Positions 4,568 to 23,777 of a stretch of 32,000 nucleotides of DNA are shown piece by piece. The stretch's first letter is position 1, and each line of letters starts with the position of its first letter. Both the position numbers and the translations under genes were made by a program. Source of the stretch: Phycisphaera mikurensis NBRC 102666 (GTDB lineage: Bacteria > Planctomycetota > Phycisphaerae > Phycisphaerales > Phycisphaeraceae); NCBI RefSeq assembly GCF_000284115.1, contig NC_017080.1:570001-602000 (forward strand). Direction: 5' to 3'. The notes below the pieces were generated by a model. The model did not search any database and was not told the origin of the DNA. It was given only the letters and a program-made list of their open reading frames with translations.

Positions 4568-4847
4568 GCGGGGCTTCCGGGGGTTCAGGGGCGAAACAGC
4601 GGGCGGGGATGATAAAGGTTCCACCCGAGCCGCGGACCGCGACACTTCTCGCGCCGTGCGAGCCGCGGTCCGCGGGTGGCTGTCGATCGAGAGGACCGGC
4701 CGGTGGCGGAAGCCCGGTTCGGCCACGCGAGAGCATCGCGCACGACCATGGAGCCGTCACCGCCTCGCAGGAAGCCGGGCGGGTCCACGCCGAGCAAGGA
4801 GGCTCGCCGTGGCGTATTCGATCGTTCCGCCGGGTTTCGCGGGGTTC

Positions 4848-4875
4848 GCCGGGGCCTGGCCAACGCGGTTCGGGG
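4848..4875. repeat. Isolated copy of the REP-like motif GCCGGGGCCTGGCCA(A/C)CGCGGTTCGGGG
   Basis: Differs by one base from the units at 16681-16708 and 18797-18887. It lies in the tpiA / giant-gene divergent intergenic region. Confidence 0.6.
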
Positions 4876-5016
4876 CTCCCACGCCGGGAGCCTCACGATC
4901 CGCGGCGAACCCGGGTCTCGCGTACGCCTCGGAAGATCCTTAGGCTGCTGTAGCTGCTGCACCCGCCGCACACCGGCCTCCCCCACCGCACTTCCGGGAA
5001 TCCTGATGCCTCTCTG

Positions 5017-11000: not shown

Positions 11001-11604
11001 CGTGGTGGACGAACAAACCAACCGCGTCGTGAAGATCGGGGGCGGACCCGGCGGCAGCGGCACCACGCAGGTGGACCTGATCAAGCTCAGGAGCGGGGTG
11101 TCGCCGGAGGTCGGCGACGTCTTGGCGAAAGAAGACATCAAGGGGGTTTACGACATCAAATCATCGGCTTCAGGAAACGTCCCGCGGGCTCAACGATTGA
11201 AGCTCAAGGTCGTGAGCCAGGGTGGTGCCGCTGCCAACCAGGGTGGCGCGGGAGAAGTGAAGGTGACGCGCACCCGGTACCGCTGGACCGCCGGAGGGGG
11301 CTGGACGGAAAATCTAAAAGTCGCTCGTTCGCTGAAGGTGATGTCGGCCTTCGGGCTGACCACCACGGCTTCGGCCTTCGTCCACGCGGACGAGCTCGAC
11401 GCGGAGCTGCTCGACGTGGTCGCCGCGTTCGAGGAAGCCAAGCGGGTGGACCTGACGCAGCGCCCCGGCGTGCTGGCCATCGCGACGGGCAAGTTCGCCA
11501 ACTACCTGAGCCACTTCGACCCGAGCGGCAACGTGCAGGCGCTCTCGCTCGCGGCCTTCCTGCAGGTGCTCAGCAGCGACGCCTTTGAGCGGGGGGACCT
11601 GTGA
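5017..11604 (+). CDS. Giant multidomain exoprotein; candidate polymorphic toxin with a C-terminal PD-(D/E)xK-like nuclease module
   Basis: 2195-aa ORF with the following regions.
- N-terminal LEPLEQRILLS motif (5104-5136).
- LamG/ConA-like domain ending LDDARIYDRGL (about 5167-5817).
- PKD-like WAIDWGDGTSE...HTF (about 5850-6060).
- About 7 delta-60-type repeats, DGK(I/L)VVAG...ARxxxDG(S/T)xDxSFG (about 6150-7240).
- Second LamG-like segment (about 7560-7760).
- Thrombospondin-type-3 Ca-binding repeats: DSDADGDG, DTDGDGLHD, DRDGLPN, DTDGDGVSD (about 8989-9410, with another acidic cluster at 9846-10020).
- Lower-GC C-terminal region (about 10800-11604) containing GNEVH, QVDLIKL and VYDIKSS, which I read as an H...D...(D)xK restriction-endonuclease-fold pattern.
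The toxin call is inference. The CDS itself is solid. Confidence 0.8.
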   Translation: MEPPEPSGEPRPAPRAQLGPPPAARRPADLEPLEQRILLSGTLVSSLKGHWRLDEIAGSTASSGVAAVHATLLADAAFAPAGGRLGGALSLSGSGSAAVVGNVHDPGSGSQTASIWFRRPGGGAIGNDQFLFSKGNRYSTREGWSLNLESSTQEIRFRVNGSDSSAQRASVEADLPQDDRWHHLAAVIDRDAGTLRAYLDGDGSVWRTGGGGPTTRSLASVTHIDTDDPLTLGAVHDGHLLRGNFTGLLDDARIYDRGLGELEIQALASGATRFEPEVTATGSSSTLTAGAPSTLGLHAEHARPDRWAIDWGDGTSEELAGAAASRVHTFAGSGSPQQIAVTAFYGTEAFQAPIRDGGAEADFALGGRAVLDTGSRSWIRDGAVQRDGKLVVAGGPNFTVARFLADGTPDASFGPHGTGVVEIPTAGEGQAVALQRDGKIVVAGGSWFSLARLNLDGSPDTGFGSAGTGVVDDTFGSTFEANDLLIQDDGRIVLAGDGAGDFILARFDPDGRRDHSFGGPGANGRVQTDLYGARDSANAIAAGRDGRLYVTGRTTSAGSSDYDVALAAYSADGGLDRSFGSNGRARADFGDDDEAAFGIDVQPDGRVVVAGRSRVSDANSYDFATARFTAGGFLDASFGGDGTVTTHLGRGYDAAYGVVVLNTGQLLIGGRTSGLGTTNGYDYGVVRLDADGSRDLTFGEGGVSAIDFEGERDDAEALVVGNDGRIFLIGRADGKIGVAATTGFAAPDSGGSFGAGWRLATMKPHHVYGPTGYVGGAHYEHLPIVAEDGVGVARVLAGQSFVLPGDESSALATTGSLDFTAQAGAAAASAGLILAGFAELEGFGDTPKRRLNLRWTPGGGLLLEQGGTEVFRLAGPWADGNLHRFTLAWEGDRVTFFADGAVAASGTLVAATDWASCSPMFGDEKTDQRGTAAAQVIRDVTVGEGSFSVADAAAAVAAASTPLATASREAFIGYEATDGSFSQNFLAQRIISHDAGALADPAEIGRGWIQDGSFTPDVLLPGRPIYQTLLFGDPGSFQKVSTVYTTASVSGRSDANQMVRVSNGWITGEGSMALDLTSKSREIHWGLNVWDHDRYVQHGRFSHYVADGGGAASTNGTHSDLHLGWTDGKRFITSVLQAPAPIFRGHVSMTLGGDHRLTRIVHYHDPAGFVGSAPMTPLAAGLLRDRTGDSVPLSFIDGPEAAPGQTVGYGSVRLADGSSLVGIGLGAYHHPPAQTLGASTALGSGHAQTTSVASVRPTDARPVWMGAAQGGSTEILRLTYDPDDLSSARTHLGTGWIDEAWLKTTDTLNTRHFISANPASRFYLDPDSDADGDGIRLLDERLWWNTNPDSLDTDGDGLHDDYEISYRPVLAGLGGTVNPGAPDAASAYASQSPRTQLRELQVGQGDLFNPLVKDDPKADFDRDGLPNYLESSYGSHPGLSDTDGDGVSDLKEHEQGSSPVDPSDLGLAPPLATKERVSVTVGDPSPSHSEQWALEFNRTTPGGPGSTERVRLMAPDHGLVITEDFWFDVGADYTGVIQHVGSNTDPPDYDWTADVKLATELPPEQADRPRAALTVTEVNNKDEPVLPGGSDFNIDEGKIIVRLRPSVEIDLDVDSDNTAGLYGGPDGTDEEDEHEDAYGDPEHPGKILLANTLDHDRDLIPDYADGFGLDVGMPTADRSTGARFTPLNLEVTGVLELVPEAVLRIDYAASVPLEIQATPSDLFALPQTGNLRLWNLDASTARNGESLLNGGNFVAPGVYSFAELGLRRGASSGQLWLEAVGASDVIGGDRITASVGTLQEDDVAGETFLTLFSDTVGFTAVEVQLEQRNTAGGGWVDANGFLAADLRPFPDGSVPDHFVYRFAVEDPRFEAETITLGNHDLSLSGGSVRYSEEFGVARPGQAGMADSSYLILSAGEVDFSYNPNGSYPVEWVDDVAAADREVAAEVDRAVTDMHGRWAAPAPEPGNSPNPGAFGNEVHRRVSERLQGRPGWLVDVVVDEQTNRVVKIGGGPGGSGTTQVDLIKLRSGVSPEVGDVLAKEDIKGVYDIKSSASGNVPRAQRLKLKVVSQGGAAANQGGAGEVKVTRTRYRWTAGGGWTENLKVARSLKVMSAFGLTTTASAFVHADELDAELLDVVAAFEEAKRVDLTQRPGVLAIATGKFANYLSHFDPSGNVQALSLAAFLQVLSSDAFERGDL

Positions 11605-12212
11605 ACGACGGCCGTCGAAGCTACATCCACTTGTTCTGGGACATCCCCATCCCGGACTGGAAGCGAACCCTGGTCGAGATGGTGCGGGTCGCGGAGCTGG
11701 GGCATCCAAGAGCGGAAGTCCACGCGTGCGAGATCGACGGCTACGACGTGTGGATGCGGGAGGACGAGTTTTACTCCGAGGAAGAACCCCTCGCCATGAT
11801 GCCGCGGTCCGACGTCCGAACGTCGGACGCCCCCCCCCTCCGCGGCTCCCGGCTCATGTACATCGACTTCATTGGGCAAGCCGAGAGAAGACTGCGGCTG
11901 GCGGAGCTGGTGGAGTCTCTACAGGCGCGGATCCCGGAGGAGATCAGCGGCGGCGTCTTCCCGCCCTGGGATCCCTTCGTCAAGATCGGCCGCCACACCG
12001 TCTGGCAGCGACTCGGCGAGCAACCCAACGGCACGTTCGGGCCGCTCCTGCACGGGCGGCCGACGCTGTCGCTGTCCATCTCGGGTGACAACGGGCCCAA
12101 GCGCCAGGACGAGTACCGAAAACTCGTGCTCAGCGATCCCGTTCTCGCTGCACTCCGCGGCGACCTCGAGGTGAAGTTCGGCCCTTCGCAGGTCGTGATG
12201 TTCTGGGATTGA
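11601..12212 (+). CDS. Hypothetical protein; candidate cognate immunity protein of the upstream C-terminal module
   Basis: 203-aa ORF. Its GTG start (11601) overlaps the giant gene's TGA (11602-11604), a GTGA 4-nt overlap indicating translational coupling. It has no signal peptide, no family I recognise, and lower GC, like the adjacent C-terminal module. Confidence 0.6.
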   Translation: MNDGRRSYIHLFWDIPIPDWKRTLVEMVRVAELGHPRAEVHACEIDGYDVWMREDEFYSEEEPLAMMPRSDVRTSDAPPLRGSRLMYIDFIGQAERRLRLAELVESLQARIPEEISGGVFPPWDPFVKIGRHTVWQRLGEQPNGTFGPLLHGRPTLSLSISGDNGPKRQDEYRKLVLSDPVLAALRGDLEVKFGPSQVVMFWD

Positions 12213-12237: not shown

Positions 12238-12347
12238 TCTCAAGGGAGCGGAAAAGGTGACAGCCACGGCCCGCCGGGGCCTGGGCTGAATGCCGTTGCG
12301 GGGGCGGAAAAGGGGGCGAATGGCGGGGCGGAAAAGGTGACAGCCAC
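12238..12347. repeat. Left boundary repeats: TCTCAAG...GCGGAAAAGGTGACAGCCAC (twice, direct) interspersed with GCCGGGGCCTGGGCT
   Basis: GCGGAAAAGGTGACAGCCAC occurs at 12248-12267 and 12328-12347. Its reverse complement occurs at 20256-20291. TCTCAAG at 12238-12244 matches CTTGAGA at 20306-20312. Confidence 0.7.
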
Positions 12348-12501
12348 GAATGGGGCTCGCCGGGGCCTGGGCTCGCCGGGCTCGCCGGGCTCGCCGGGGC
12401 CTGGCCACCTCGCAGGAGGCGTTGCTTCTTCCGGACGGTTTCTGTACGGTCCTCCTGCCGGGTCGCGTGACCCGCTCCCTCGCTCCTTCCGGAGGCTCCC
12501 T

Positions 12502-13503
12502 GTGCCGCGCCGCAACCGCTGCCTGATCGTCGACCCCGACCTCCCGCAGGCGTGGCACGTCAGCAACCGCTGCGCGAGGTCTCTGTTCCTGCTGGAGCCC
12601 GAGGCACAAGACCGCGGGGATCGGGAGCCGGAGGACCACCGCAAGGAGCTGCTGCTGGCGAGGCTGGAGAAGCTGGCGGCGGTCAGCTCCATCGAGGTGC
12701 TGGCCTTCAGCGTCGTGGGCAACCACCTGCACCTGGTCCTGCGCAACGTGCCCAAGGTCGGCCACGCCTGGTCGCCGCAGGAGGTGCTGGACCGCTGGCT
12801 GGCGCTGCACCCGCTGCGGAACCGCCAGGGCCCGCGGGAGCCCGAGGCCGGCGAGCTGGAGGCGCTGGTGGCCGACGAAGCGTGGGTTGCCGCCACGAGG
12901 CGGAAGCTGATGGACCTCTCGCAGTTCATGAAAGAGCTCAAGCAGCACGTGGCGGTGAAGGTGAACAAGCTCGAGAGCGGCAGCGGCGCCTTCTGGAGCG
13001 GTCGGTACAAGAGCAAGCCGATCGACGATCCCGAGGGTCACCAGCTGGTGCGTTCGATGGTGTACGTGGACCTGAACCCCCTGGCGGCGGGGCTGTGCGA
13101 TCGACCCGAGGACGGCCGCCACACCTCGCTGGAGGGGCGGCTGGGGCGGGACGGACCGGCCACGTCGGCCGGTGATCCTCTCGAGCGGGCACCCAGCGCC
13201 GCCTTCCGCCGCTCCCGCAGCGCCTCGTGGCTGGTGCCGCTGGTGGGCGAGGATCCCAGGTCGCGGATGCACGAAGCCGCCCGTGCCGCATCGGCGGCCG
13301 TGCCCGCTGCAGGCCGCACCGTCTTGGCCGGTCTGACCCTACGTCGGTACCTGCGTGTGGTGGACGCCGTTTCGCGTCTCTTGCGTGCAGGCAAGGCCTC
13401 GCTGGACCGCCGGCTGGCACCGATCCTCGAGCGTGTGGGCCTGGGCCCGGAGGACCTCCGCGTCGGCTTCACGCGTATGGCCACCGGCTCGCCGCACTTC
13501 TGA
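12502..13503 (+). CDS. HUH (Y1) transposase, IS200/IS605 TnpA-like / REP-associated tyrosine transposase (RAYT)-like, copy 1
   Basis: Motifs are WHVSNRCARSLFLL, the HUH motif GNHLHLVLR, FWSGRYKSKPI and VYVDLNPLAAGL (the tyrosine / Y-x-x-x-NP region). The start is placed at GTG 12502, preceded by GGAGG at 12491-12495. Sequence upstream of that is repeat DNA, and it differs between the copies further 5'. Confidence 0.8.
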   Translation: MPRRNRCLIVDPDLPQAWHVSNRCARSLFLLEPEAQDRGDREPEDHRKELLLARLEKLAAVSSIEVLAFSVVGNHLHLVLRNVPKVGHAWSPQEVLDRWLALHPLRNRQGPREPEAGELEALVADEAWVAATRRKLMDLSQFMKELKQHVAVKVNKLESGSGAFWSGRYKSKPIDDPEGHQLVRSMVYVDLNPLAAGLCDRPEDGRHTSLEGRLGRDGPATSAGDPLERAPSAAFRRSRSASWLVPLVGEDPRSRMHEAARAASAAVPAAGRTVLAGLTLRRYLRVVDAVSRLLRAGKASLDRRLAPILERVGLGPEDLRVGFTRMATGSPHF

Positions 13504-13700
13504 CGCCAGCGGATCCGGGTTCCAGCGTCCCCGGCCGGTAGGCTGGCGGGTGTGTCATGCGCCACGCCAGCGGCATCACCCAACGCGAGAGCCGCGCGGG
13601 CTCGCAAACGGCTGGCGCTTGCCCGCGAGGACGCGGGAGGCCGCGCAACCTGCCCGAGCGGTCCGATCCGCGTCGAATGTGGAGGGGGCACCCGGACAGG
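13504..13700 (+). repeat. Conserved right-end (RE) segment, copy 1, with nested hairpins
   Basis: CGCCAGC...GCTGGCG stems at 13504-13549 and 13565-13617. There is an inner palindrome GAGCCGCGCGGGCTC and a CCCGCG-AGGA-CGCGGG hairpin. The segment is near-identical at 15127-15320 and 16945-17160. Confidence 0.75.
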
Positions 13701-13995
13701 GTCTAGGCCCCGGCAGACACCCGGCAGACACCCGGCAGACACCGGCAGACACCGGCAGACACAGACAGACGGTGTCCAGGCCCCGGCAGATCCAGACGGT
13801 GTCCAGGCCCCGGCAGATCCCCGGCAGATCCGGCAGATCCAGACGGTGTCCAGGCCCCGGCAGATCCCGGCAGATCCAGACGGTGTCCAGGCCCCGGCAG
13901 ATCCGGCAGATCCGATCGGCAGATCCCAGGCCCCGGCAGATCCCGTGTCCAGGCCCCGGCAGCCCCCCAGACGGTGTCCAGGCCCCGGCAGATCC
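13701..13995. repeat. REP-like / microsatellite array A
   Basis: About 8 copies of (GACGGTGTC)CAGGCCCCGGCAGATCC, interleaved with 9-11-nt units (CCGGCAGACAC, CCGGCAGATC). Confidence 0.85.
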
Positions 13996-14121
13996 ACCTG
14001 GTCGCCGGGCTCGCCGGGGCCTGGCCAGCTCACAGGAGGCGTTGCTTCTTCCGGACGGTTTCTGTACGGTCCTCCTGCCGGGTCGCGTGACCCGCTCCCT
14101 CGCTCCTTCCGGAGGCTCCCT

Positions 14122-15126
14122 GTGCCGCGCCGCAACCGCTGCCTGATCGTCGACCCCGACCTCCCGCAGGCGTGGCACGTCAGCAACCGCTGCGCGAGGT
14201 CTCTGTTCCTGCTGGAGCCCGGAGCCCAAGACCGCGGGGATCGCGAGCCGGAGGACCACCGCAAGGAGCTGCTGCTGGCGAGGCTGGAGAAGCTGGCGGC
14301 GGTCAGCTCCATCGAGGTGCTGGCCTTCAGCGTCATGGGCAACCACCTGCACCTGGTCCTGCGCAACGTGCCCGAGGTCGGCCACGCCTGGTCGCCGCGG
14401 GAGGTGCTGGACCGCTGGCTCGCCCTGCACCCGCTGCGGAACCGCCAGGGCCCGCGGGAGCCCGAGCCCGGCGAGCTGGAGGCGCTGGTGGCCGACAAAG
14501 GGTGGGTCGCCGCCACGAGGCGGAAGCTGATGGACCTCTCGCAGTTCATGAAAGAGCTCAAGCAGCACGTGGCCGTGGCCGTCAACAAGCTCGAGAGCGG
14601 CAGCGGCGCCTTCTGGAGCGGTCGGTACAAGAGCAAGCCGATCGACGATCCCGAGGGTCACCAGCTGGTGCGTTCGATGGTGTACGTGGACCTGAACCCC
14701 CTGGCGGCGGGGCTGTGCGATCGACCCGAGGACGGCCGGCACACCTCGCTGGAGGGGCGGCTGGGGCGGGACCAGCCAGCAACCCCGCAGCAAGCCGAGC
14801 CCGCCGAGCGGGCACCCACCGCCGCCTTCCGCCGCTCCCGCAGCGCCTCGTGGCTGGTGCCGCTGGCGGGCGAGGATCCCAGGTCGCGGATGCACGAAGC
14901 CGCCCGTGCCGCATCGGCGGCCGTGCCCGCTGCAGGCCGCACCGTCTTGGCCGGTCTGACCCTGCGTCGGTACCTGCGTGTGGTGGACGCCGTGTCGCGT
15001 CTCCTGCGTTCGGGCAAGGCCTCGCTGGACCGCCGTCTCGCGCCGATCCTCGAGCGTGTGGGCCTGGGCCCGGAGGACCTCCGCGTCGGCTTCGCGCGGA
15101 TGGCCACCGGCTCGCCGCACTTCTGA
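14122..15126 (+). CDS. HUH (Y1) transposase, IS200/RAYT-like, copy 2
   Basis: Same motifs as copy 1 (GNHLHLVLR, FWSGRYKSKPI, VYVDLNPLAAGL), with scattered substitutions and one short indel region (GRDQPATPQQAEPAE versus GRDGPATSAGDPLE). GTG 14122 is homologous to 12502. Both copies are intact. Confidence 0.8.
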   Translation: MPRRNRCLIVDPDLPQAWHVSNRCARSLFLLEPGAQDRGDREPEDHRKELLLARLEKLAAVSSIEVLAFSVMGNHLHLVLRNVPEVGHAWSPREVLDRWLALHPLRNRQGPREPEPGELEALVADKGWVAATRRKLMDLSQFMKELKQHVAVAVNKLESGSGAFWSGRYKSKPIDDPEGHQLVRSMVYVDLNPLAAGLCDRPEDGRHTSLEGRLGRDQPATPQQAEPAERAPTAAFRRSRSASWLVPLAGEDPRSRMHEAARAASAAVPAAGRTVLAGLTLRRYLRVVDAVSRLLRSGKASLDRRLAPILERVGLGPEDLRVGFARMATGSPHF

Positions 15127-15292
15127 CGCCAGCGGATCCAGGTTCCAGCGTCCCCGGCCGGTAGGCTGGCGGGTGTGTCATGCGCCACGCCAGCGGCATC
15201 ACCCAACGCGAGAGCCGCGCGGGCTCGCGAACGGCTGGCGCTTGCCCGCGAGGACGCGGGAGGCCGCGCAGGATGCTCCGAGCGGTCCGATC

Positions 15293-15447
15293 CGCGTCGG
15301 ATGTGGAGGGGGCACCCGGACGGTGTCCAGGCCCCGGCAGATCCCGCGTCGGATGTGGAGGGGGCACCCGGACGGTGTCCAGGCCCCGGCAGATCCCCGG
15401 CAGATCCCGGCAGATCCGGCAGATCCGGCAGATCCCGGCAGATCCGG
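15293..15447. repeat. REP-like / microsatellite array B, including a perfect 52-nt tandem duplication
   Basis: The unit CGCGTCGGATGTGGAGGGGGCACCCGGACGGTGTCCAGGCCCCGGCAGATCC occurs at 15293-15344 and 15345-15396. About 5 units of C(C)(C)GGCAGATC follow. Confidence 0.85.
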
Positions 15448-15641
15448 ATGGGTTTCACGGAATCTTGATCGACATCCTTCCTGAGTCCCCGGCCGTACCG
15501 TTCAGCAAAGCACAAGTCAAGGATGGTCTTCGCGAGGCGTATCGAAGATGGGCACATAAGGAAAGTACTCCATTCAATGAGTCTGAAGGAGCGAGATTGG
15601 CGGACGTACTCGATGCCTTTATCGACCGACTGCCAGATTGA
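15447..15641 (+). pseudogene. Start-less C-terminal gene fragment (orphan toxin-tip candidate 1)
   Basis: GC drops to about 50% (121/240 by hand count over 15481-15720). The frame reads ...ILIDILPESPAVPFSKAQVKDGLREAYRRWAHKESTPFNESEGARLADVLDAFIDRLPD*. It stops 4 nt before the ATG of the next ORF and has no start codon of its own after the repeat junction. Confidence 0.45.
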
Positions 15642-15645
15642 TCGT

Positions 15646-16533
15646 ATGCCTGTCCACATAAAGATCACTGTCTTTGAGCATTCCATAGGCTCGGAACATT
15701 TTGCAGAACTCTGCAAAGCTTATCCAGAGAATTTGCTGCCCTCCGGGCTATTTCGGATTACCCGAGAGCCGACGGATGCGAGAATGGTCCAAGTCCAAAA
15801 GCACCTCGCAGAATACGGGCTCAGACCTGCGCAAATGGGAGAGTCTTCTGGTGACGATGTTTATTGGGCCGACCCCGTGTCAGTCCCGACGCCCAAACAG
15901 CTTGCGGAAGCCGAGTGGTTCTCAATTGAGAACATGCTTGCAACCCGCGGCGACCGACTGCACAACGAGGAACTCGAATGGAAGGTGGAAGAGTGCGAAG
16001 ATGAAGGCGATCGTGAACACTGGCAAGAAACTCCGGTCCACGGCTGCTACGGCGCCGCCATCATGGTGACGGAGCAGATCGCGGAGGTGATCCGCGGCTG
16101 GGAAGCGCCCGAGCTGCGGGTGCAGCCGGTCCACTATCACACGCGCGACTGGTCCTCGAACACCAAGGTGCCCATGGAGTGGCGGGAGGCGGGGCTCGAG
16201 CCGCGGTTCTCCGTCGCCAGCCGGCTCACGCTGCCGCTGATGTCGGAGACCTGTCAGCCGGTCCACCGCCGCAGGGGCACGCCCCTGCCGCGAGGTTCGG
16301 ACGAGCCCGCGGCCATGCGACGACCCGAGGGCGAAGAGCAGTTCTGGTGCTACAAGCAGTCGGAGGTGGAGCAAATGCCTCCGTTCGACCTGGCCATGAC
16401 CCACGAGCGCCTAGGAAACTCTTCTCGAGCTCCACTGAACCACGGGCTGGTCTTCTCGAGACGCCTCACCGAACTGCTCAGCAGCGAAGACCCCAACATC
16501 ACCTGGTGGCCGGTGATGTTCGAGGACGAGTAG
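15646..16533 (+). CDS. Hypothetical protein; candidate orphan immunity protein 1
   Basis: Begins ATG 15646 (MPVHIKITVFEHS...). About 295 aa, acidic, no signal peptide. It contains two segments ending in a pattern seen in some immunity families (AIMVTEQIAEVIRGWEAPELRVQPV and LVFSRRLTELLSSEDPNITWWPV); that family resemblance is weak. The ORF track's 15523 start would overlap the preceding fragment. Confidence 0.6.
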   Translation: MPVHIKITVFEHSIGSEHFAELCKAYPENLLPSGLFRITREPTDARMVQVQKHLAEYGLRPAQMGESSGDDVYWADPVSVPTPKQLAEAEWFSIENMLATRGDRLHNEELEWKVEECEDEGDREHWQETPVHGCYGAAIMVTEQIAEVIRGWEAPELRVQPVHYHTRDWSSNTKVPMEWREAGLEPRFSVASRLTLPLMSETCQPVHRRRGTPLPRGSDEPAAMRRPEGEEQFWCYKQSEVEQMPPFDLAMTHERLGNSSRAPLNHGLVFSRRLTELLSSEDPNITWWPVMFEDE

Positions 16534-16584
16534 CGCTACCACGCGAGAAGGTGGACGCCGGGAGACGCCGGGGCCTAAACACCG

Positions 16585-16735
16585 GGGCGGAAAAGGCGGA
16601 AGGGCGGAGCGGAAAATGAGCGGAAAAGATGCCGGCCACCAAACCCACACGACCGCTCTGATCAGCGCACGCTCGGCTTTGCCGGGGCCTGGCCACCGCG
16701 GTTCGGGGGTTCGGGGGCCTGGCCACCGCGGGTCG
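16585..16735. repeat. GCGGAAAAG motif cluster followed by two REP-like units
   Basis: GCGGAAAAGG, GCGGAAAATG and GCGGAAAAGA occur at 16586-16630. GCCGGGGCCTGGCCACCGCGG occurs twice at 16681-16733. This is the same motif order seen after the first immunity candidate (12246-12410). Confidence 0.7.
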
Positions 16736-16944
16736 CGGCCGTGCCCGCTGCAGGCCGCACCGTCCTGGCCGGTCTGACCCTGCGTCGGTACCTGCGTTCG
16801 GTGGACGCCGTTTCGCGTCTCTTGCGTGCAGGCAAGGCCTCGCTGGACCGCCGTCTCGCGCCGATCTTCGAGCGTGTGGGCCTGGGCCCGGAGGACCTCC
16901 GCGTCGGCTTCACGCGTATGGCCACCGGCTCGCCGCACTTCTGA
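16735..16944 (+). pseudogene. 3' remnant of a third IS200/RAYT-like transposase copy
   Basis: Encodes ...AVPAAGRTVLAGLTLRRYLRSVDAVSRLLRAGKASLDRRLAPIFERVGLGPEDLRVGFTRMATGSPHF*, matching the last 68 aa or so of copies 1 and 2. The REP unit is joined directly to internal transposase sequence, consistent with an internal deletion. Confidence 0.8.
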
Positions 16945-17174
16945 CGCCAGCGGATCCAGGTTCCAGCGTCCCCGGCCGGTAGGCTGGCGGGTGTGTCATG
17001 CGCCACGCCAGCGGCATCACCCAACGCGAGAGCCGCGCGGGCTCGCAAACGGCTGGCGCTTGCCCGCGAGGACGCGGGAGGCCGCGGGAGGCCGCGCAGG
17101 ATGCTCCGAGCGGTCCGATCCGCGTCGGATGTGGAGGGGGCACCCGGACGGTGTCCAGGCCCCGGCAGATCCCC
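16945..17174 (+). repeat. Conserved right-end (RE) segment, copy 3
   Basis: Near-identical to 13504-13700 and 15127-15344. It carries a 10-nt tandem duplication (GGGAGGCCGC twice, 17076-17095) and ends GGCCCCGGCAGATCCCC at the junction with orphan tip 2. Confidence 0.8.
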
Positions 17175-17588
17175 GCCTTCGTCCGATTCGTTAATCGCGC
17201 CGACTTCGAAGCCGGCAGCAACGCTCGCCTCGTCCCGGCCGCCGACGGCAGCGGCCGCCAGACGATCGTCCTCGGGACCGCGCAGGCCACGGGCGAGACC
17301 GCTACGCACGCCAATCAGGTCAACGCGATCGCGCAGCAGCTGGCCGAGTCCGGCGATTGGGCGCACATCTCCCTTGACCGCAACTACCGAACGGCGACGG
17401 GGCGGGTTTTCGACCCGAAAGTTGCCAATCCGCTGAATGGCAACCAAATGGTTTCGCCTCGGCCGGACATCGTTGCGGTGGGGCGGGATGGGAGGATGCA
17501 GGTGTTCGAGGTGCAGTCCGAGGGGCAGAACTTCGATCAGTTGGCCGAATACGTCAGAAGGCAGGAGGCCGCCGCCGTCCACGATTGA
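17175..17588 (+). pseudogene. Start-less C-terminal module with a PD-(D/E)xK-type nuclease motif (orphan toxin-tip candidate 2)
   Basis: Reads AFVRFVNRADFEAG...THANQVNAIAQQLAESGDWAHISLDRNYRTATGRV...SPRPDIVAVGRDGRMQVFEVQSEGQ...*. RPD-(x13)-E-V-Q-S is the classic restriction-endonuclease-fold core. There is no start codon of its own; the only in-frame ATG is inside the RE at 16998. Confidence 0.5.
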
Positions 17589-18622
17589 CCGGGGACCACC
17601 GTCACGTTCCGGACCATCGAAGCCGGAGGCTCGTTGTGATACTCGCTGACATCCAGCAGGATCCAGAGGGCCTTGCATACTTCCAGACGGTCAGCGATTG
17701 CGTGTTGGAGCCATGCAACGGCTGTGATCTTCGTTCAGTCTTCACTTGGGCGATGACGCTCAAGCCGATGGACGAGGTGCCTATCACGCAGGTTGCCGGG
17801 TCTGGAAAGAACATCCCGCGGAACAAGGTGGCGCCGTACCGGCGCGGGAAAGGTCAGCTGCCGACGGAATCGGATCATGAATTCCAGGGCGTCAGCGCGG
17901 CGCATCAGCTTCGCACTTCCGGTTATCAGCAAACGGATGCCGGGTTCTACCTCTCGCTCGATCGCGTCGATAAGTTCGGCTACGCTTGGCCAGATGGAGC
18001 GTATCTCCGCCTCAAGCTGCTGATCGACTGCGAGGAATACGCAATCCCTTTCGTCGAACATGTCGCAGAGTTCCTGCACGGCCCGTTCTCCGGTCAGATC
18101 CGACGGGGCAGTGTCTTTCGCATGTCGCGGTTTGCTGGACCCACCGGTTACCTGATCGGGGTCGGAACGGGCTTCGTGCCGAGTTCCACGCGTCCTCGGC
18201 ACAACGATCGGTTGCTTGAGGGTTACTTCAACAACCGAAGCGGCGGCGTCTCAAATCATGCTCCGCACCAGGTCATCCGCGAGGTCTACCCCGTCAACCT
18301 TTTGCCCAACGAGGTGCTGACGATGCCCTGGGGCAAGACGGCCCGGACGCTGGGCGAGGCACTGAAGGAACACCCCGGGACGGCCCGCTTCGAGCGGTAC
18401 AACGACCACTGCTGGCGCTGGGAGCCGCACTGGGAGGCGATCGAGACGCTGCGGGTCGACCTGTTCCGGGCCGGCCGGCTGTGGTACCAGAAGATGGACG
18501 CGTGGCAGCAGCCGGACTGGCACCGCCCCGACTGGTCGGCGCCGTACGAGTACACCGGCGAGCTGCCGGACTTCGTGAAGCCCGGCTGGTCGGACTTCTG
18601 GGCCCACGGGTACACGCCGTGA
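17585..18622 (+). CDS. Hypothetical protein; candidate orphan immunity protein 2
   Basis: The ORF begins at a TTG overlapping the preceding TGA (TTGA, 17585-17588). An alternative GTG lies at 17636. GC is about 59% over 17641-17880 by hand count. The third-codon-position G/C bias favours this frame over the antisense ORF at 17735-18202. The C-terminal half is Trp-rich (WRWEPHWEAIETL...WYQKMDAWQQPDWHRPDW). No family recognised. Confidence 0.6.
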   Translation: MTGDHRHVPDHRSRRLVVILADIQQDPEGLAYFQTVSDCVLEPCNGCDLRSVFTWAMTLKPMDEVPITQVAGSGKNIPRNKVAPYRRGKGQLPTESDHEFQGVSAAHQLRTSGYQQTDAGFYLSLDRVDKFGYAWPDGAYLRLKLLIDCEEYAIPFVEHVAEFLHGPFSGQIRRGSVFRMSRFAGPTGYLIGVGTGFVPSSTRPRHNDRLLEGYFNNRSGGVSNHAPHQVIREVYPVNLLPNEVLTMPWGKTARTLGEALKEHPGTARFERYNDHCWRWEPHWEAIETLRVDLFRAGRLWYQKMDAWQQPDWHRPDWSAPYEYTGELPDFVKPGWSDFWAHGYTP

Positions 18623-18704
18623 GAAGCACAACAGATCCACCATGCGACCGTTGGCTGCGCCCGCTGCGGGCGATGCTCCCAGCGACCAGGAACCTCGCGG
18701 AATG

Positions 18705-18887
18705 GGCCCCGGCAGCGCCAGGCCCCGGCAGCGCGGGCAGCGGTATCCAGGCCCCGGCAGCCCCCGGCAGCCCCGGCAGCCCCCGTGAATGGGCTTTGCC
18801 GGGGCCTGGCCACCGCGGTTCGGGGCCTGGCCACCGCGGTTCCGGGGCCTGGCCACCGCGGTTCCCGGGGCCTGGCCACCGCGGTTC
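18705..18887. repeat. Head-to-head REP cluster (array D)
   Basis: Positions 18705-18780 carry GGCCCCGGCAG(C) units in right-end orientation. Positions 18797-18887 carry four tandem 21-23-nt units, GGGGCCTGGCCACCGCGGTTC(C)(C), in left-end orientation. The cores CCAGGCCCCGG and CCGGGGCCTGG are reverse complements. Confidence 0.85.
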
Positions 18888-18950
18888 CACTTGCAAGATA
18901 CCCACTGCCTCGACCGCCACAACCCCGCCCTCACCGGCCTCACCGGCCTC

Positions 18951-20114
18951 ATGGACCTGCTGACCCAGCACGGCACCGACGCCATGGCCCAGGCCTTCGC
19001 CGCCACACTCAACATCGCCATGCGGCTCGAGCGTGAGCAACACCTCGGTGCCGCCGAGCACGAACGGTCGGCGGATCGCACCGGCTACGCCAACGGCTTC
19101 TCACCCAAGCAGCTGGACACGCCTGCCGGACGCGTCACCGTCGCCGTGCCCAAGACCCGACCGGTCCCCGGCCGCGGCGGGAGCTTCGAGCCCTTCTTCC
19201 CGCAAGCTCTGCAACGTGGCAGCCGCGCCTGCCGGGCCGTCAACGCCACGCTGGCCCAGATGTACGTCCAGGGCGTCTCCACCCGCGACGTCAAAGCCGT
19301 CATGGCCGAACTGGGCCTCGAGAACGTGACCTCCGCCCAGGTCAGCCGGGCCACCGCGGAACTGGACGAAGAGCTTCGTGCCTGGCGAGAGCGGCCCTTG
19401 GGCACCGTCGAGCGGCTGATCCTCGACGCCCGCTACGAGAAGGTCCGCGAAGGCGGAATCGTCCGCGACGTGGCCGTGCTCACCGCCGTGGGCGTCCTGC
19501 CCAACGGCTCCCGCTCGGTGCTGGGCGTCTCGGTGGCCCTCTCCGAGGCGGAGGTTCACTGGCGAGCGTTCCTCGACTCGCTGGTGGCTCGCGGCATGCG
19601 GGGCGTGGAGCTTGTCACCAGCGACGACCACGCCGGGCTGGCCGAAGCCCGGAAGGCCGTGCTGCCAGCGGTGCCGTGGCAGCGGTGCCAGTTCCATCTG
19701 GCCAACAACGCGATCCACCACGCACCCACGGCCGCCACACGCGAGAAGATCGGCAAGCAGCTCGGCCAAGTCTGGAACGCGCCCGCTCGGGCCGAGGCCG
19801 ACCGCCGGCTTGCCGACCTGATCGACGAGCACGAGCCAAAGAGCCCGCGGCTGGCGAAGTGGCTCGGCAAGAACGTGCCCGAAGGCCTCACCGTCTTCGC
19901 CTTCCCGCCGGCGCAGCGGAAGAAGCTTCGGACCTCCAACGGCATCGAGCGGCCGATCCAGCAGGAGCTCAAGCGTCGGACCCGCAAGATCCGCGTGTTC
20001 CCCAACGCCGAGTCGTTGCTTCGGCTGTGCTCGGCCTTGCTGGTCGAGATCGACGACGATTGGCAGGCCTCCACCCGCCGCTACCTGCCCGCTTCCGAGG
20101 AGGTGGCCCGCTGA
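18951..20114 (+). CDS. IS256-family (Mutator-type) transposase
   Basis: Contains MDLLTQHG...LNIAMRLEREQHLGA..ERSADRTGYANGF..KQLDTPAGRVTVAVPKTR, then ILDARYEKVRE, ...LVTSDDHAGL..A......WQRCQFHL...N, and ...SNGIERPIQQELKRRTRKIRVFPN. These are typical IS256 transposase blocks with DDE residues. ATG 18951 was chosen because the upstream part of the track ORF is translated REP DNA. Confidence 0.9.
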   Translation: MDLLTQHGTDAMAQAFAATLNIAMRLEREQHLGAAEHERSADRTGYANGFSPKQLDTPAGRVTVAVPKTRPVPGRGGSFEPFFPQALQRGSRACRAVNATLAQMYVQGVSTRDVKAVMAELGLENVTSAQVSRATAELDEELRAWRERPLGTVERLILDARYEKVREGGIVRDVAVLTAVGVLPNGSRSVLGVSVALSEAEVHWRAFLDSLVARGMRGVELVTSDDHAGLAEARKAVLPAVPWQRCQFHLANNAIHHAPTAATREKIGKQLGQVWNAPARAEADRRLADLIDEHEPKSPRLAKWLGKNVPEGLTVFAFPPAQRKKLRTSNGIERPIQQELKRRTRKIRVFPNAESLLRLCSALLVEIDDDWQASTRRYLPASEEVAR

Positions 20115-20255
20115 TCAAGCAGGAGCGGACTTACACGGCTGAAGTTGCACAATCCGTCCGCGTGGTGACGCGGAGTGGATGGAGACTGTGATCCCCCAGT
20201 TCGGCTTGGAGTCGACGCTACGGCCCAGGGATGGCCTCGGAAGAAAGGTTGATCG

Positions 20256-20312
20256 GTGGCTGTCACCTTTCCCGGCCCTGTCACCTTTCCCGGCCCCGGT
20301 GCAAGCTTGAGA
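20256..20312. repeat. Right boundary repeats: inverted copies of GGAAAGGTGACAG(CCAC), twice, plus CTTGAGA
   Basis: GTGGCTGTCACCTTTCCCGGCCCTGTCACCTTTCCCGGCC at 20256-20291 is the reverse complement of the 12248-12267 / 12328-12347 motif, with one A fewer. CTTGAGA at 20306-20312 mirrors TCTCAAG at 12238-12244. Confidence 0.7.
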
Positions 20313-20346: not shown

Positions 20347-21027
20347 TCATCCCGATCGGTCCTCGCCGTCTGCGGACGCGGACGCCGAGATCTCCTTCTC
20401 CGTCACCCCGAGCCACTCGAGCATGTGCTGCTCGTACACGTCCTGGTGCTCGGGGTTGGAGAAGTCCAGCCGCAGCTCGTTGATCACCTTGGTGCCCTGG
20501 CCGATCCACTGGGTCCAGGTGACCTGCCCGAAGTTCTCCACGATGTACTCGCCGATCGGGCCCCGCATGGGCGGGCCGTCGAGCCGGGGCTGGGGCTGGC
20601 CCGTCCGCTTGTCGAGCACCTGCGTCCCGCCGCTCTCCGCCTGCAGCGCGGCGGCCTTCTCCGCCGCGGACTCGACCTCGGGGATCGGCGCCCCCAGCCG
20701 CTTTAGCCGCTCTCCCATCGCGCGCATCGGCATCACGTCGCCGCGGCCGGCCGCGATGGCGTAGCCGCGGGTGAGGGTGTCGGTCGCCTCGGCCTCCTGC
20801 CCGAGCTTGAGCTGCGCCTCGCCGAGGTGCTGCAACGCCCGGGACATGTCCGGGTTGTGCACGAGGGCTTCCTTGTACGCGTCCGCCGCCTCCGCGTGCC
20901 GGCCCACCGCGCGGTAGGCCTCACCCAGCGAGAAGAAGGCCATGTCGTCGGGCGCCTCCTCCGCCATGCGCTGCCACTGGGCGATGCGGGCTTCGGCGGC
21001 TTCGTCGGCGGTCGCTTCGGTGCTCAT
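20347..21027 (-). CDS. TPR-repeat protein fused to a YggX-like (Fe(II)-trafficking / oxidative-damage protection) domain
   Basis: The N-terminal half has TPR-like helices (FFSLGEAYRAVGRHAEAADAYKEALVHNPDMSRALQHLGEAQLKLG). The C-terminus, GPIGEYIVENFGQVTWTQWIGQGTKVINELRLDFSNPEHQDVYEQHMLEWL, aligns by eye with E. coli YggX ([51 protein letters not shown]). Confidence 0.8.
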   Translation of the reverse strand: MSTEATADEAAEARIAQWQRMAEEAPDDMAFFSLGEAYRAVGRHAEAADAYKEALVHNPDMSRALQHLGEAQLKLGQEAEATDTLTRGYAIAAGRGDVMPMRAMGERLKRLGAPIPEVESAAEKAAALQAESGGTQVLDKRTGQPQPRLDGPPMRGPIGEYIVENFGQVTWTQWIGQGTKVINELRLDFSNPEHQDVYEQHMLEWLGVTEKEISASASADGEDRSG

Positions 21028-21054
21028 GCGGCGAGCGTACGCGCGGCGGGGGCC

Positions 21055-21651
21055 TCAACCGAAGCGGAAGGTCGGCGGGTCGCCCGGTCCGCAGCGGCCC
21101 CCCTCGATGAGCAGCGCGAGGTACCCGCGCGGCTCGCGCGGCGCGTCGCGGAGGCCCAGGCGGGCCAGCGTGGCCTCCACCGCGTCCGGGTCGGGCCCCT
21201 CGACCTCGACGAAGAAGCCCAGGCCCGGCAGCTCGTCGATCTCGACAACGCAGCCGCCGAGGCGGTGCCGGTCGCGGCGCTTCTCGAAGCGGAAGCGGGG
21301 GGCGTAGCCCAGGGCGGCAAGGAAGGCGGCGGCGCCGTCGGCGTCGGCAACCACGATCTCGTGCTCGGGGCGGCGCTTCAGGCCGTCGGCGGCGCCGCCG
21401 GCGCCGGGGAGGCGGGGCCCCTTGTGGCAGAGCACGTGGCGCGGGGGGCCGGCGTGGGGGCTCCCGGCGCGTGGGGTCTCGGTCCGCAGGCGGAGGGCGC
21501 GGTCGGCGCCGCGGAGGCGGTCGCCGGGGAGGTCGAAGAAGCGGTTGTCCTCGGTGAAGGCGGCGGCGAGCGGCGCGTCGAGCGCCGCCAGCCGCCGGCG
21601 GAGGCCTTCGGGATCGGCGAGCGGGAGCTTGGCTTCGGTCTCGATCGGCAT
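21055..21651 (-). CDS. CYTH-domain protein (class IV adenylate cyclase CyaB / triphosphatase family)
   Basis: Begins MPIETEAKLPL (the ExExK signature). Later ...ALRLR..., RRPEHEIVV, FEKRRDR and VVEIDELPGLGFFVEVE are present, matching the typical CYTH fold sequence. Confidence 0.8.
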   Translation of the reverse strand: MPIETEAKLPLADPEGLRRRLAALDAPLAAAFTEDNRFFDLPGDRLRGADRALRLRTETPRAGSPHAGPPRHVLCHKGPRLPGAGGAADGLKRRPEHEIVVADADGAAAFLAALGYAPRFRFEKRRDRHRLGGCVVEIDELPGLGFFVEVEGPDPDAVEATLARLGLRDAPREPRGYLALLIEGGRCGPGDPPTFRFG

Positions 21652-21657
21652 GGCGGG

Positions 21658-22233
21658 TCAGCGTGCCGGCGGCTCGGGAAGCCTGGCGGACGGGCGTGGG
21701 TCGCGGGCGCGCGTGCGGCGGTCCGGCGGCGGGGCGGCCGGGGGCGCCGGCGCGTCGGGGGCTGGCGGGTCGGGGCGGCCCTCGGCGAAGAGCTCGCGCT
21801 GCAGCCGCGACACGCCGCGGAGCACGCGGCGGCGGCGGCCGACCGGCCGGCCCGCGGCGTACTGCCGGCCGTGGTGGTAGAGCGTCCCGGAGGCGGCGAG
21901 CAGCGGCAGCGGGTTGGCCAGGCCCGTGCCCCGCGCCACGCGGTACAGCAAGAGCCGGCCGGGCCAGCCCACCCCGCGGGCGTGGCAGATGGACCGGAAC
22001 ACCGACCACCAGGCGTCGGGCGCGGCCGCGGAGGCGCTGCCGCCCGGCGCTCGGAGGCCGGCGCGGCGGGCGAGGGAACGCAGGGCGACGATCGCCAGCA
22101 CGAGCCCGGCGGCGATCAGCAGCGGCGCCAGCGGCACCGAGCGGGTTGCGGTGGCCGCGCGGCCGACGTCCTCGAGGCCGCCGGGCGTCTGGAGCAGGCG
22201 GGCCGCGAGGATGAGGGGCACCGAGCCGTTCAC
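21658..22233 (-). CDS. Hypothetical membrane protein
   Basis: The GTG start at 22233 overlaps the upstream gene's TGA (GTGA). Two hydrophobic segments are present (VPLILAARLL, LAPLLIAAGLVLAIVAL), followed by WWSVFRSICHARGVGWPGRLLLYRVA. It forms the tail of the track ORF 21658..22923. Confidence 0.55.
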   Translation of the reverse strand: MNGSVPLILAARLLQTPGGLEDVGRAATATRSVPLAPLLIAAGLVLAIVALRSLARRAGLRAPGGSASAAAPDAWWSVFRSICHARGVGWPGRLLLYRVARGTGLANPLPLLAASGTLYHHGRQYAAGRPVGRRRRVLRGVSRLQRELFAEGRPDPPAPDAPAPPAAPPPDRRTRARDPRPSARLPEPPAR

Positions 22234-23777
22234 GAGGCGAGCGCTCCGGGCATGCGCGGGAGGCGGAGCGCCGGCGGCGGGTCGCCCGCGTCGGGCAGCC
22301 GCGCCTCCAGGGCGGCCCAGGCCTCGTCCGCGGCCTCCACCCGGCCAAGCGGCGGGGCGGACCCCGCCGGCGTCCGCATCGCGGCCGCAAGCGCCACCAG
22401 CGCCCGGCGCCGGGCCGGCGTCGCGTCCGCGGCGGGGGCCAGGCGCGCCCGCAGGGCTCGCTCCCCCCCGGGCCGGGCCCGGCAGTCGGCCAGCGCTCGC
22501 GCGCGGGCCGGGCCGTCGAGTCGGTCCAGCTCCGCGAGGAGCCGCTGGGCGGCTTCCGCGGCCTCGGCGTCCTCCGCGGCGGCCCGAACCGCGGGATCGG
22601 CGGCGGCGTGCAGCGCCGCGAGGTGGGGGCCGCGGCGGGCCTCGGGCGCGGCGGCCACCACGCGCGCCGCCAGCCGCGCCTCGGGTGTCGCGGCGCTCGC
22701 GGCCAGCGCCGCGGCGGCGGCGAGCAGCGCCGGATCGCCGGCTTCGGCGAGGTCCCGCACCACCAGCTTCAGCGCGGCGGCGCGGACCGCGGGCTCGGGA
22801 TCGGCCAGCGCCAGCGCCACCCACCGCGACCGCGTCGCGGGGGGCAGCGGCAGTGCGGCGACGAGATCCACGAGGCAGCGCCGCTCCGTCGGCGAGGCTT
22901 CGGCCGGCCAGGCCCGCGGGCACAGCGAGCCGGGTTCGGCGGCCGCCGCGAGCGCGGCGGCGACGGCGGGCTCGGAGAGCAGGGCGGGCTGGGGGAAGAC
23001 GCCGCGCAGCGGCCGCTCGCGGGCGGCGCGGGCCAGCCCCGCGAGCGCCGCGGACCGCAGCGGCTCCACCGCCAGCAGAGGCAGCAGAGCCCCGCGCTCC
23101 GCCGCGCCGCCGGCCGCGGCGACCCGCCGGCGCAGGGGCGGCAGCGCCCCGTGCGAGGGCTCGGCAAAGGCGGCCTCGCAGAGCGGCGACGGCTCGCCCG
23201 CGAGCAGGAGGAAGGCCGTGAGCAGGCCTCCGTGCCCCTCAACCGGGCCGCCGGCGCCGCGGGGAGCGGGTCGGCCCCAGGCGGCGACGGCGGGGTCGAC
23301 GGCCGCCGCGAGCGTGGCCGCCTCGGTGGAGCCCGGGGCGGCGTCGCCCGCAAGGCTCACCAGCACGGCGGCGGCCTCGTCGGCGAGGTCGGGCCGCGGC
23401 AGGCTCGTCGCGTCCACCACGAGGTAGGCCAAGTGGCAGAGCCGCCGCTCCGCGATCAGCCGCAGCGCATTCCGGGTGGCGTCGGTTCCGGCGCCGAAGG
23501 CCCGGCGCACCGCCGCGTCGAGGGCGTGGTCGGGCACGGCGTAGACCCGCTCCGCCGCCCGCGGCCCCAGCCGGTGCAGGTGCCGGACCAGCGCGAGGCG
23601 GCCCCCGCCCTCCCCACGCCGGAGCAGCGCCGCGACCATCGCCTCGTGCTCCCGCGTGGCCGCGGTGGGCAACGCCGCCGCGAGCGCCGCCGACGCCGCC
23701 GGGCCGGGCGTCGCGGCGAGCAACGCGGCCGCCGTCGGGCGTTCGGCGGGGTCGGCGGCGGGGGTCCGGGGGCGCAT
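22230..23777 (-). CDS. Ala/Leu-rich HEAT/ARM-like repeat protein (hypothetical)
   Basis: 515-aa ORF, first gene of the minus-strand operon. It has repeated helical D-P-x-V-R-A-A-A-like segments (ADPEPAVRAAALKLV, AADPAVRAAAEDA). No catalytic motif recognised. Confidence 0.6.
   Translation of the reverse strand: MRPRTPAADPAERPTAAALLAATPGPAASAALAAALPTAATREHEAMVAALLRRGEGGGRLALVRHLHRLGPRAAERVYAVPDHALDAAVRRAFGAGTDATRNALRLIAERRLCHLAYLVVDATSLPRPDLADEAAAVLVSLAGDAAPGSTEAATLAAAVDPAVAAWGRPAPRGAGGPVEGHGGLLTAFLLLAGEPSPLCEAAFAEPSHGALPPLRRRVAAAGGAAERGALLPLLAVEPLRSAALAGLARAARERPLRGVFPQPALLSEPAVAAALAAAAEPGSLCPRAWPAEASPTERRCLVDLVAALPLPPATRSRWVALALADPEPAVRAAALKLVVRDLAEAGDPALLAAAAALAASAATPEARLAARVVAAAPEARRGPHLAALHAAADPAVRAAAEDAEAAEAAQRLLAELDRLDGPARARALADCRARPGGERALRARLAPAADATPARRRALVALAAAMRTPAGSAPPLGRVEAADEAWAALEARLPDAGDPPPALRLPRMPGALAS

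Follow-up and report, generated by a model that had tools for sequence, protein, structure and literature searches.

Gain and shelving of toxin tips at polymorphic-toxin loci are usually ascribed to homologous recombination in the conserved pre-toxin region. RAYTs, the tyrosine transposases that go with repetitive extragenic palindromes (REPs), are typically single-copy genes accompanied by tens to hundreds of dispersed REPs (Bertels and Rainey). Transposases lying between orphan cassettes are a described feature of contact-dependent inhibition (CDI) and Rhs loci (PMC4927057). The TnpA_Y1 transposases of subclass 2.3 have YVDLNP and NHxH motifs, a median length of ~325 aa, insertions in the core, a two-part C-terminal tail and several copies per genome (PMC6006769). 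The TIRtron is a tyrosine-transposase gene with terminal inverted repeats (TIRs), possibly giving rise to small repeat families in dimers or clusters (PMC3733652). Here we analyse a 32,000-nt stretch of DNA from Phycisphaera mikurensis NBRC 102666 (hereafter the window; GC 73%), in which a toxin-like gene is followed by orphan toxin tips that start directly at the ends of a Y1-type element, named element B. Coordinates are window positions, and features lie on the + strand except where stated.

Orphan toxin tips begin at the ends of element B

At a probability of about 0.5, we read the stretch from 12.2 to 20.3 kb as the orphan-cassette tail of a polymorphic-toxin locus, colonised by mobile DNA of three kinds, and this colonisation as that of a neutral, horizontally acquired and recombination-prone tail, the link with toxins reflecting the locus and not a dedicated role of the element. 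Element B, a second Y1 element (element A) and an IS256 element would each have settled in this tail. The layout is real, and it is tidier than chance insertion predicts.

Copy 1 of element B (12382..14001, from repeat finding and alignment) starts with a left end made of three GCTCGCCGGG units (array 12354-12395) and the core GCCGGGGCCTGGCCACC (12393-12409). An open reading frame (ORF) of 333 aa (12502-13503) and a 3' spacer follow, and then a right-end array (13700-13995) of five CCGGCAGACAC units and seven CCAGGCCCCGGCA cores, six of them inside a GTGTCCAGGCCCCGGC unit and most of them preceding AGATCC. This array directly abuts the left end of copy 2 (14002..15446), which has its left-end core at 14013-14029, an ORF of 334 aa (14122-15126) and a right end of two 52-nt units followed by CCGGCAGATCC repeats to 15445. 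The tandem units are spaced 1620-1623 bp from start to start, and their ORFs, both open, are 95% identical at the DNA level, with 19 synonymous and 18 nonsynonymous codon differences. Of the third copy (16735..17174), the last 210 nt of the gene (16735-16944), the whole 3' spacer and a single right-end unit are left, at 95% identity with copy 2; since its left side is joined straight to a left-end-type repeat, it is an internally deleted copy of B.

All three copies have in common ~230 nt after the stop codon, terminating in GGTGTCCAGGCCCCGGCAGATCC, and the right end runs ATGTGGAGGGGGCACCCGGAC...GGTGTCCAGGCCCCGGCAG. With at most one mismatch allowed, the window has 22 occurrences of the core CCAGGCCCCGGCA, where 0.27 would be expected by chance. 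The right end of copy 2, which has five additional CCGGCAGATCC units, stops at 15445/15446, and the frame of the first orphan tip (tip1) runs from 15447. At the internally deleted copy the right end stops at 17172-17174, and the frame of the second (tip2) runs from 17175.

A complete B unit is 1.45-1.6 kb long and comprises a left inverted repeat, a ~120-nt leader, the gene of 333/334 aa, a 3' spacer of ~200 nt and a right inverted repeat. The left inverted repeat, of 17-20 nt, is TCGCCGGGGCCTGGCCACC and the right one is GGTGTCCAGGCCCCGGCAGA. The left-end core GCCGGGGCCTGGCCACC is the inverted complement of the right-end core GGTGTCCAGGCCCCGGC at 16/17 nt; both full copies have GCCGGGGCCTGGCCACC on their 5' side and GGTGTCCAGGCCCCGGC on their 3' side, and a related metagenome locus (L017) is arranged alike. 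In six members from four genomes (the three window copies, L017, L018 and L101), the first CCAGGCCC core lies 200-242 nt past the stop codon, and the sequence of the 3' spacer is unconserved between species.

Short tandem arrays of the terminal 9-11 nt tend to follow both ends of B. In all, arrays with units of 9-21 nt from the termini stand at 13716-13995, 15386-15445, 12354-12395, 16681-16734 and 18798-18890. They consist of five CCGGCAGACAC units, two to six copies of CCGGCAGATCC, three GCTCGCCGGG units, and GGGGCCTGGCCACCGCGGTTC twice and four times; the A element of L017 has terminal arrays likewise, of GGTCCGCCGGG and GGTCCGCGAAGG. Such arrays could come from slippage, or from repeated cleavage and rejoining.

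The first-pass annotation of this DNA had described two tandem open transposase copies with a ~1620-bp period, and repeat finding and alignment agree on them. The right end that it gave to all three copies and the abutment of the copy 1 array on copy 2 were seen as well, and its tip junctions fall within two bases of those above (15445/15447; 17172-17174/17175). It took the third copy for a 3' remnant; the copy is indeed partial, but not a bare right end, since a left-end-type repeat directly precedes it. The left end as inverted complement of the right-end core is absent from that annotation, and the description of the ends as hairpin-rich did not survive: folding of the right and left B ends as single-stranded DNA (ssDNA) was no better than that of shuffled sequences (z = -0.28 and -0.49).

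Outside the tail, the B-type cores are rare. Two other 21-kb loci of P. mikurensis that were sampled have 0-1 each, and the ~20 kb of the window outside the tail have one clear core. A classical abundant REP family was set aside as unlikely, given this rarity in the P. mikurensis DNA sampled.

The B protein is a Y1 HUH transposase by motifs and modelled fold

An alignment of 25 relatives of the B protein has H75 and H77 in every sequence and Y188 in nearly every one. The motifs NHLH and YVDLNP are present, and the W motif reads FWEGRFK in the family consensus. The AlphaFold model of the transposase has a pLDDT of 78.8 and a pTM of 0.81. The best Foldseek match is the E. coli RAYT 4ER8 (E = 1.3e-4), followed by IS608, ISDra2 and IS200 TnpA, and ranks 1-28 are all RAYT or IS200/IS605 TnpA structures with a probability of 1.00. 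With sequence profiles, the matches stay below threshold: Pfam Y1_Tnp scores 21-22.3 bits, under its gathering score of 23, and the two scores with NCBIfam REP_Tyr_transpos (NF047646), 38.9 and 42.3 bits, do not reach its cut-off of 80, with only the C-terminal half of the model matched. A profile search against PDB sequences gave no TnpA match. By its motifs and modelled fold, the B gene product is a Y1 HUH enzyme of the IS200/RAYT superfamily; the gene is of class 2 and fits the described TnpA_Y1 subclass 2.3 and the TIRYT/TIRtron kind. The label of IS200/RAYT-like HUH transposase in the first-pass annotation holds for the Y1 HUH superfamily (H75/H77/Y188 and Foldseek), and not for IS200-like ends or the Y motif.

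Four P. mikurensis genes, BAM02345, BAM02677, BAM02678 and BAM03177, fall in one 90% cluster, to which the partial copy of the window adds; these four >90% identical genes occupy three or more genomic places. The transposase-like proteins of the window are identical to BAM02677 and BAM02678 or share the 90% cluster with them. In a second P. mikurensis assembly (L016; GCA_014207395.1, contig JACHEL010000012.1), the contig ends 690 nt past a single transposase copy, whose product (P0033) differs from both window copies; the assembler probably collapsed the tandem pair and broke the contig there. A plasmid collection gave no match, and viral contigs gave no relatives, with DNA matches at chance level only. 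A scan of genome contigs with GGTGTCCAGGCCCCGGCAG, in a collection that does not include the P. mikurensis genome, returned 15 single chance matches.

Orphan tips and immunity genes

Tip1 (15447..15641; 64 codons, GC 0.52), judged from its length, probably represents the C-terminus of a toxin domain that has been truncated. It is followed by imm1 (15646..16533), an immunity-like ORF of 295 aa. One short metagenome contig (L100) has an imm1 homolog preceded by an ORF whose end is homologous to tip1. The pair is conserved there, this being the sole tip1 relative found.

Tip2 (17175..17588; 137 aa, GC 0.66) is a polymorphic-toxin C-terminal domain, as shown by the position of its relatives at the C-terminus of varied carriers. 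Beyond the P. mikurensis self-hit it has 48 relatives, and in nearly all of them the match falls at the very C-terminus of a protein of 105-3344 aa. The carriers scanned with Pfam (n=9) include RTX, RHS, PT-HINT and TSP3 types, and some relatives are short orphan-like ORFs. Homology of tip2 to its full-length relatives starts with the first residue after the junction. Just upstream of this point the full-length relatives have a conserved KDVIKPxG, in whose place the element end stands in tip2; tip2 is therefore 5'-truncated, cut ~10 residues into a conserved module. Its neighbour imm2 (17636..18622) is immunity-like by position and has no Pfam family match.

The view of tip2 as a toxin tip, already taken in the first-pass annotation, is thus upheld by these relatives, while its description of the tips as low in GC suits tip1 (0.52) and not tip2 (0.66, against 0.73 for the window). 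Homology of the tips to the main toxin gene was considered and rejected: BLASTP of tip1 and tip2 against the C-terminal 534 aa of the protein encoded there showed none (E ~1 or worse), and the DNA upstream of both tips is element end.

An ATG in each right end (15180 and 16998) opens an ORF (15180-15641 and 16998-17588) that continues in frame into tip1 and tip2, respectively, and the public annotation of tip2 (protein P0155, 145 aa) starts at a GTG within the right end. These frames could be due to chance in DNA of 72% GC. They can also be read as a selfish alliance, in which the right end supplies a promoter and a start codon, and the leaderless tip and its immunity gene form an addiction module that stabilises the element. 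The two ATGs and the start chosen for P0155 agree with this idea, which we nevertheless hold to be highly improbable: in-frame continuity at two junctions is expected by chance about once in 9, long frames being common at such GC, the promoter and expression of the right end are purely putative, and tip1 is probably too short for activity.

Relatives of element B and their surroundings

Metagenome locus L017 encodes a transposase 70% identical to that of the window, at the end of an Rhs toxin array. The same locus contains element A, a canonical RAYT-type gene (230 aa) flanked by perfect 27-nt inverted repeats, which lies between an orphan Rhs fragment and the main Rhs gene with its immunity gene. 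The A right repeat marks the exact point from which this orphan is homologous to the main Rhs gene. At 7471-7510 of L017, the end of the A repeat, CCTTCGCGGACC, resembles the YD-repeat GCCTTCGGCAACCG that the main Rhs gene has at the corresponding place, a likeness that may reflect microhomology or target preference.

At 9779-11326 of L017, the public protein P0002 (499 aa) is a chimera. Its first 142 codons derive from an A-type RAYT gene and continue in frame into the B left end and the B gene; downstream, the 3' portion of the A gene is missing. In a related genome, locus L101 has an ortholog at the same syntenic site, with downstream genes of 77-85% DNA identity and no Rhs array. The idea that B is a recent insertion into an A gene in L017 is weakened, because L101 has B at this site without A or Rhs.

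The other relatives stand in ordinary surroundings. The P. mikurensis paralogs P0003 and P0007 have housekeeping genes as neighbours, and so does P0011, a 54%-identical relative from the metagenome-assembled genome that also holds L101. Distant relatives at 34 metagenome loci have housekeeping surroundings too: the 112 neighbour ORFs at these loci include no recurrent family in the 25 families listed, and none of these 25 is a known toxin family. Nor is any of four further large neighbour proteins that were looked at individually, three from outside the 112, a toxin. A family-wide toxin association was accordingly rejected, the neighbours being diverse housekeeping genes.

These surroundings bear on a further explanation, a domesticated RAYT, in which the 'ends' are host regulatory or terminator-type extragenic repeats, the copies arose by segmental duplication and nothing is mobile. 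In its favour, two related genomes keep the ortholog in syntenic position, and cores lie downstream of it. The distant relatives appear as isolated genes in housekeeping contexts at the metagenome loci examined, and the copies are only ~95% identical, with synonymous change above the no-selection expectation. Against it stand the four >90% identical genes at three or more genomic places, the existence of an internally deleted copy and of solo ends, the rarity of cores outside the locus (0-1 per 20 kb) and the in-frame interruption of another gene by the B left end in L017. Taking both sides, domestication has little probability in our estimate, though more than the selfish alliance.

A third metagenome, represented by a 1.27-kb contig (L103), has an orphan-like tip2 homolog whose frame opens just past a stop codon. 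It is preceded, within positions 1-140, by CGCGAAGCCGAGGGTGACACC, which resembles an A-type repeat; across 522 kb of other loci, the core 10-mer of this A-like repeat has a background of about one occurrence per 100 kb.

Colonisation versus cassette turnover

Ordinary colonisation of the tail is favoured because L101, the paralogs P0003/P0007, P0011 and the 34 metagenome loci show no toxin association, and because other mobile DNA shares the tail and transposases in orphan arrays have precedent (PMC4927057). In this scenario the tips would be 5'-truncated remains of longer toxin genes, whose upstream parts were lost in rearrangements with breakpoints lying exactly at an element end. The B protein would cleave and rejoin ssDNA at the B ends, by analogy with RAYT and IS200/IS605 enzymes, and the rearrangements might have taken either of two routes: HUH cleavage at the B right end, resolved against a downstream right-end-type site to leave an adjacent deletion, or recombination between the many direct copies of the element ends.

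Several points weigh against colonisation as the whole explanation. All three orphans examined (two in the window and one in L017) begin exactly at an element end, and no toxin fragment lies on the other side of the element at those orphans, a pattern that random insertion into junk DNA would not predict. Repeats of the Y1 elements are concentrated in the toxin tails of the window, L017 and L103, which are independent, and are near-absent from ~60 kb of other P. mikurensis DNA. The cassette made of the B remnant, tip2 and imm2 has a 37-nt inverted repeat around it, as well as direct repeats of 34 nt that are identical.

The coincidence of every orphan 5' boundary (3/3) with an element end would be expected if the Y1 elements A and B were a vehicle or recombination device for toxin-cassette turnover in this planctomycete clade, either through read-through capture of DNA 3' of the right end (as in IS91/ISCR and Helitron elements) or with element copies as portable homology arms. 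We regard such a coupling as doubtful, if conceivable. The unit at 16680-18785, which runs from a left repeat through the remnant, tip2 and imm2 to right cores, fits it, lying within the 37-nt inverted repeat, whose arms are 73% complementary. So do the A-left-type repeats that follow immunity genes both in the window (imm0, the immunity-like gene next to the main toxin gene, and imm1) and in L017 (both genes), the A-type-repeat-like sequence before the orphan tip2 homolog of L103, and the position of the tip2 junction, within ~10 residues of the start of other orphan copies of the tip2 family. In a layout of IS91/ISCR/Helitron type, the captured DNA would stand between the true right end and a surrogate right end further downstream; right-type cores follow imm2 (18718-18785), and no right-type end follows imm1. 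The tip of the main gene itself has no element end before it, so that element-bounded orphans cannot be swapped into the main gene by homology. Neither the L101 ortholog nor most members of the family have toxin neighbours, and the sample consists of three loci. Read-through transduction, moreover, is known for Y2 rolling-circle HUH elements and is not known for Y1 enzymes, which also counts against the coupling.

A dedicated role of the element in the capture or exchange of cassettes is thus possible but unlikely. The stronger proposal, that Y1 HUH elements (RAYT/TIRYT-like) of Phycisphaerae define and move toxin-immunity cassettes, with cleavage resolved at a downstream end-type site, is distinctly unlikely. 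Were it true, the element would capture tip-immunity modules on its 3' side, or an element end would be fused to the boundary of a toxin module, and the cassettes would travel with the ends; this would be an ssDNA analogue of ISCR or integron cassette capture that acts on polymorphic toxins.

Whichever explanation applies, orphans without pre-toxin homology are bounded by the ends of ssDNA-transposase elements in at least two genomes. If the ends help to make the junctions, cassette turnover would have a second route, and the locus would offer a natural substrate for the study of subclass 2.3/TIRYT enzymes, whose activity and DNA targets are undescribed. If colonisation was ordinary, which is more likely, the locus is still of use in showing clearly the ends of a Y1 subclass that is poorly characterised: the inverted-repeat core keeps a conserved distance from the gene, micro-arrays stand at the termini, two copies form a tandem dimer and another copy is internally deleted.

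The toxin-like main gene and other mobile DNA of the locus

The main toxin-like protein, PSMK_05160 (5017..11604; 2195 aa as longest ORF), has LamG, DUF5122 beta-propeller and TSP3-like repeat domains according to Pfam. Its closest relative, P0036, has RHS repeats and aligns only to residues 37-740 and 1326-1734, so the C-terminal ~460 aa of PSMK_05160 are unique. The next gene, imm0 (11601..12212; 203 codons), is immunity-like by position; its GTG start overlaps the TGA stop of PSMK_05160 (GTGA), and it matched no family in Pfam or NCBIfam-type profile scans. The layout of the two genes is that of a polymorphic toxin, of presumed toxicity, with its immunity gene.

A solo left-end-type repeat, REP-B' (GCCGGGGCCTGGCCAACGCGGTTCGGGG, also given as GCCGGGGCCTGGCCACCGCGGTTC), lies on the - strand at 4840..4876, ~150 nt 5' of the point where the toxin gene starts. 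As the A right repeat stands at the far end (20253-20293), element-derived repeats bound the whole 15-kb toxin locus.

After imm0, left-end repeats of element A (12240..12350) contain GCGGAAAAGGTGACAGCCAC twice (12253 and 12333) and are homologous to the A repeat GCGAAGGTGTCAGGTAC of L017; the repeat is also given as GGAAAAGGTGACAGCCAC, and the A left motif has four matches against 0.04 expected. A repeat patch at 16560..16734 includes a left-end-like core (16567-16583), degenerate A-left GCGGAAAAG repeats after imm1 (16587-16628) and a REP-B' array with GGGGCCTGGCCACCGCGG(T/G)TC twice (16675-16734). At 18690..18890, right-end-type cores (18718 and 18747) are followed by four left-end-type REP-B' units (18792-18890), an arrangement that is a right end-left end (RE-LE) junction or a REPIN-like inverted pair; their first 34 nt (18792-18825) recur without change at 16675-16708.

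An insertion sequence of the IS256/Mutator family occupies approximately 18890..20154 (Pfam Transposase_mut, 8.7e-93; transposase ~18954-20114), with the left-end-type repeat array on one side and what is left of the 3' end of an A-type RAYT gene on the other. The ORF listed for it from 18789 starts in the repeat array and is probably over-extended. The A right end (20155..20293) consists of the last 32 codons of the A gene (20155-20250) and two inverted A repeats (20253-20293); by tblastn, the gene remnant is 56% identical to the A protein of L017 over 32 aa (E = 1.7e-6). From 21000 to 26000, the window has a very high GC content (0.78-0.85) with long overlapping ORFs on both strands. An Rfam scan of the window gave no match.

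Comparison with known systems

Element B shares with IS200/IS605 elements such as IS608 and ISDra2 the fold of the Y1 HUH catalytic core and, presumably, the chemistry of ssDNA cleavage and joining. It departs from their subclass 1.1, which has a Y-x-x-x-Q motif and core-only proteins of ~150 aa, in its motif (Y...NP and not Y...Q) and its length (333-334 aa, twice as long), its ends are an inverted repeat and not like-oriented subterminal hairpins, and it has no tnpB. With RAYTs and REPtrons it has in common the Y...NP motif, the best structural match (4ER8) and repeats that are inverted on both sides of the gene, to which the REPIN-like RE-LE pairs at 18740-18816 may be added. It is unlike them in its four near-identical genes and in the rarity of its repeats outside the locus in the DNA sampled.

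The agreement with TnpA_Y1 subclass 2.3 extends to YVDLNP, NHxH, the W motif, a length of ~325 aa, several copies per genome, a ~55-aa insertion between beta3 and alphaC and a long two-part C-terminal tail. The assignment is made by the alignment, the secondary structure of the model and copy number, and the hydrophobic residue of the HuH motif is L in B and Y in subclass 2.3. This subclass was reported mainly from Chromatiales and Alteromonadales, without flanking REP-like structures (PMC6006769), whereas B comes from Phycisphaerae and has an inverted-repeat core 200-242 nt past the stop codon with its inverted complement upstream.

Because its left end is the inverted complement of the right-end core, the B unit resembles TIRtrons (PMC3733652). 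As in TIRtron/TIRYT elements, a RAYT-like gene is flanked by TIRs and not by REP hairpins, with small local families in dimers or clusters. The repeat of element A, GGTG(A/T)CAG, matches the TIRtron motif GGGGWSAS (PMC3733652) at 7/8 positions, while the TIR core of B, GGTGTCCAGGCCCCGGC, does not fit it. Tandem full copies, terminal arrays of 9-11 nt and nesting in a toxin locus, all present in B, are not part of the TIRtron description (PMC3733652).

As for the locus, the first-pass annotation was aware of no described coupling between such an element and toxin cassettes. That novelty is reduced, since transposases in orphan toxin arrays are already described (PMC4927057). Its suggestion that the element captured or displaced toxin tips, or repeatedly targeted toxin genes, is conjectural and finds some support in the 70%-identical relative that is likewise found in an Rhs array. 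The order of genes is that of classical orphan arrays, with a main toxin and its immunity gene followed by 5'-truncated tip/immunity modules in the same orientation amid mobile-element genes, although the carrier here is a LamG/DUF5122/TSP3 protein and not CdiA or Rhs. Classical orphans retain homology to the main gene that permits recombination, whereas the orphans of this locus are without such homology and begin at the end of a Y1 element.

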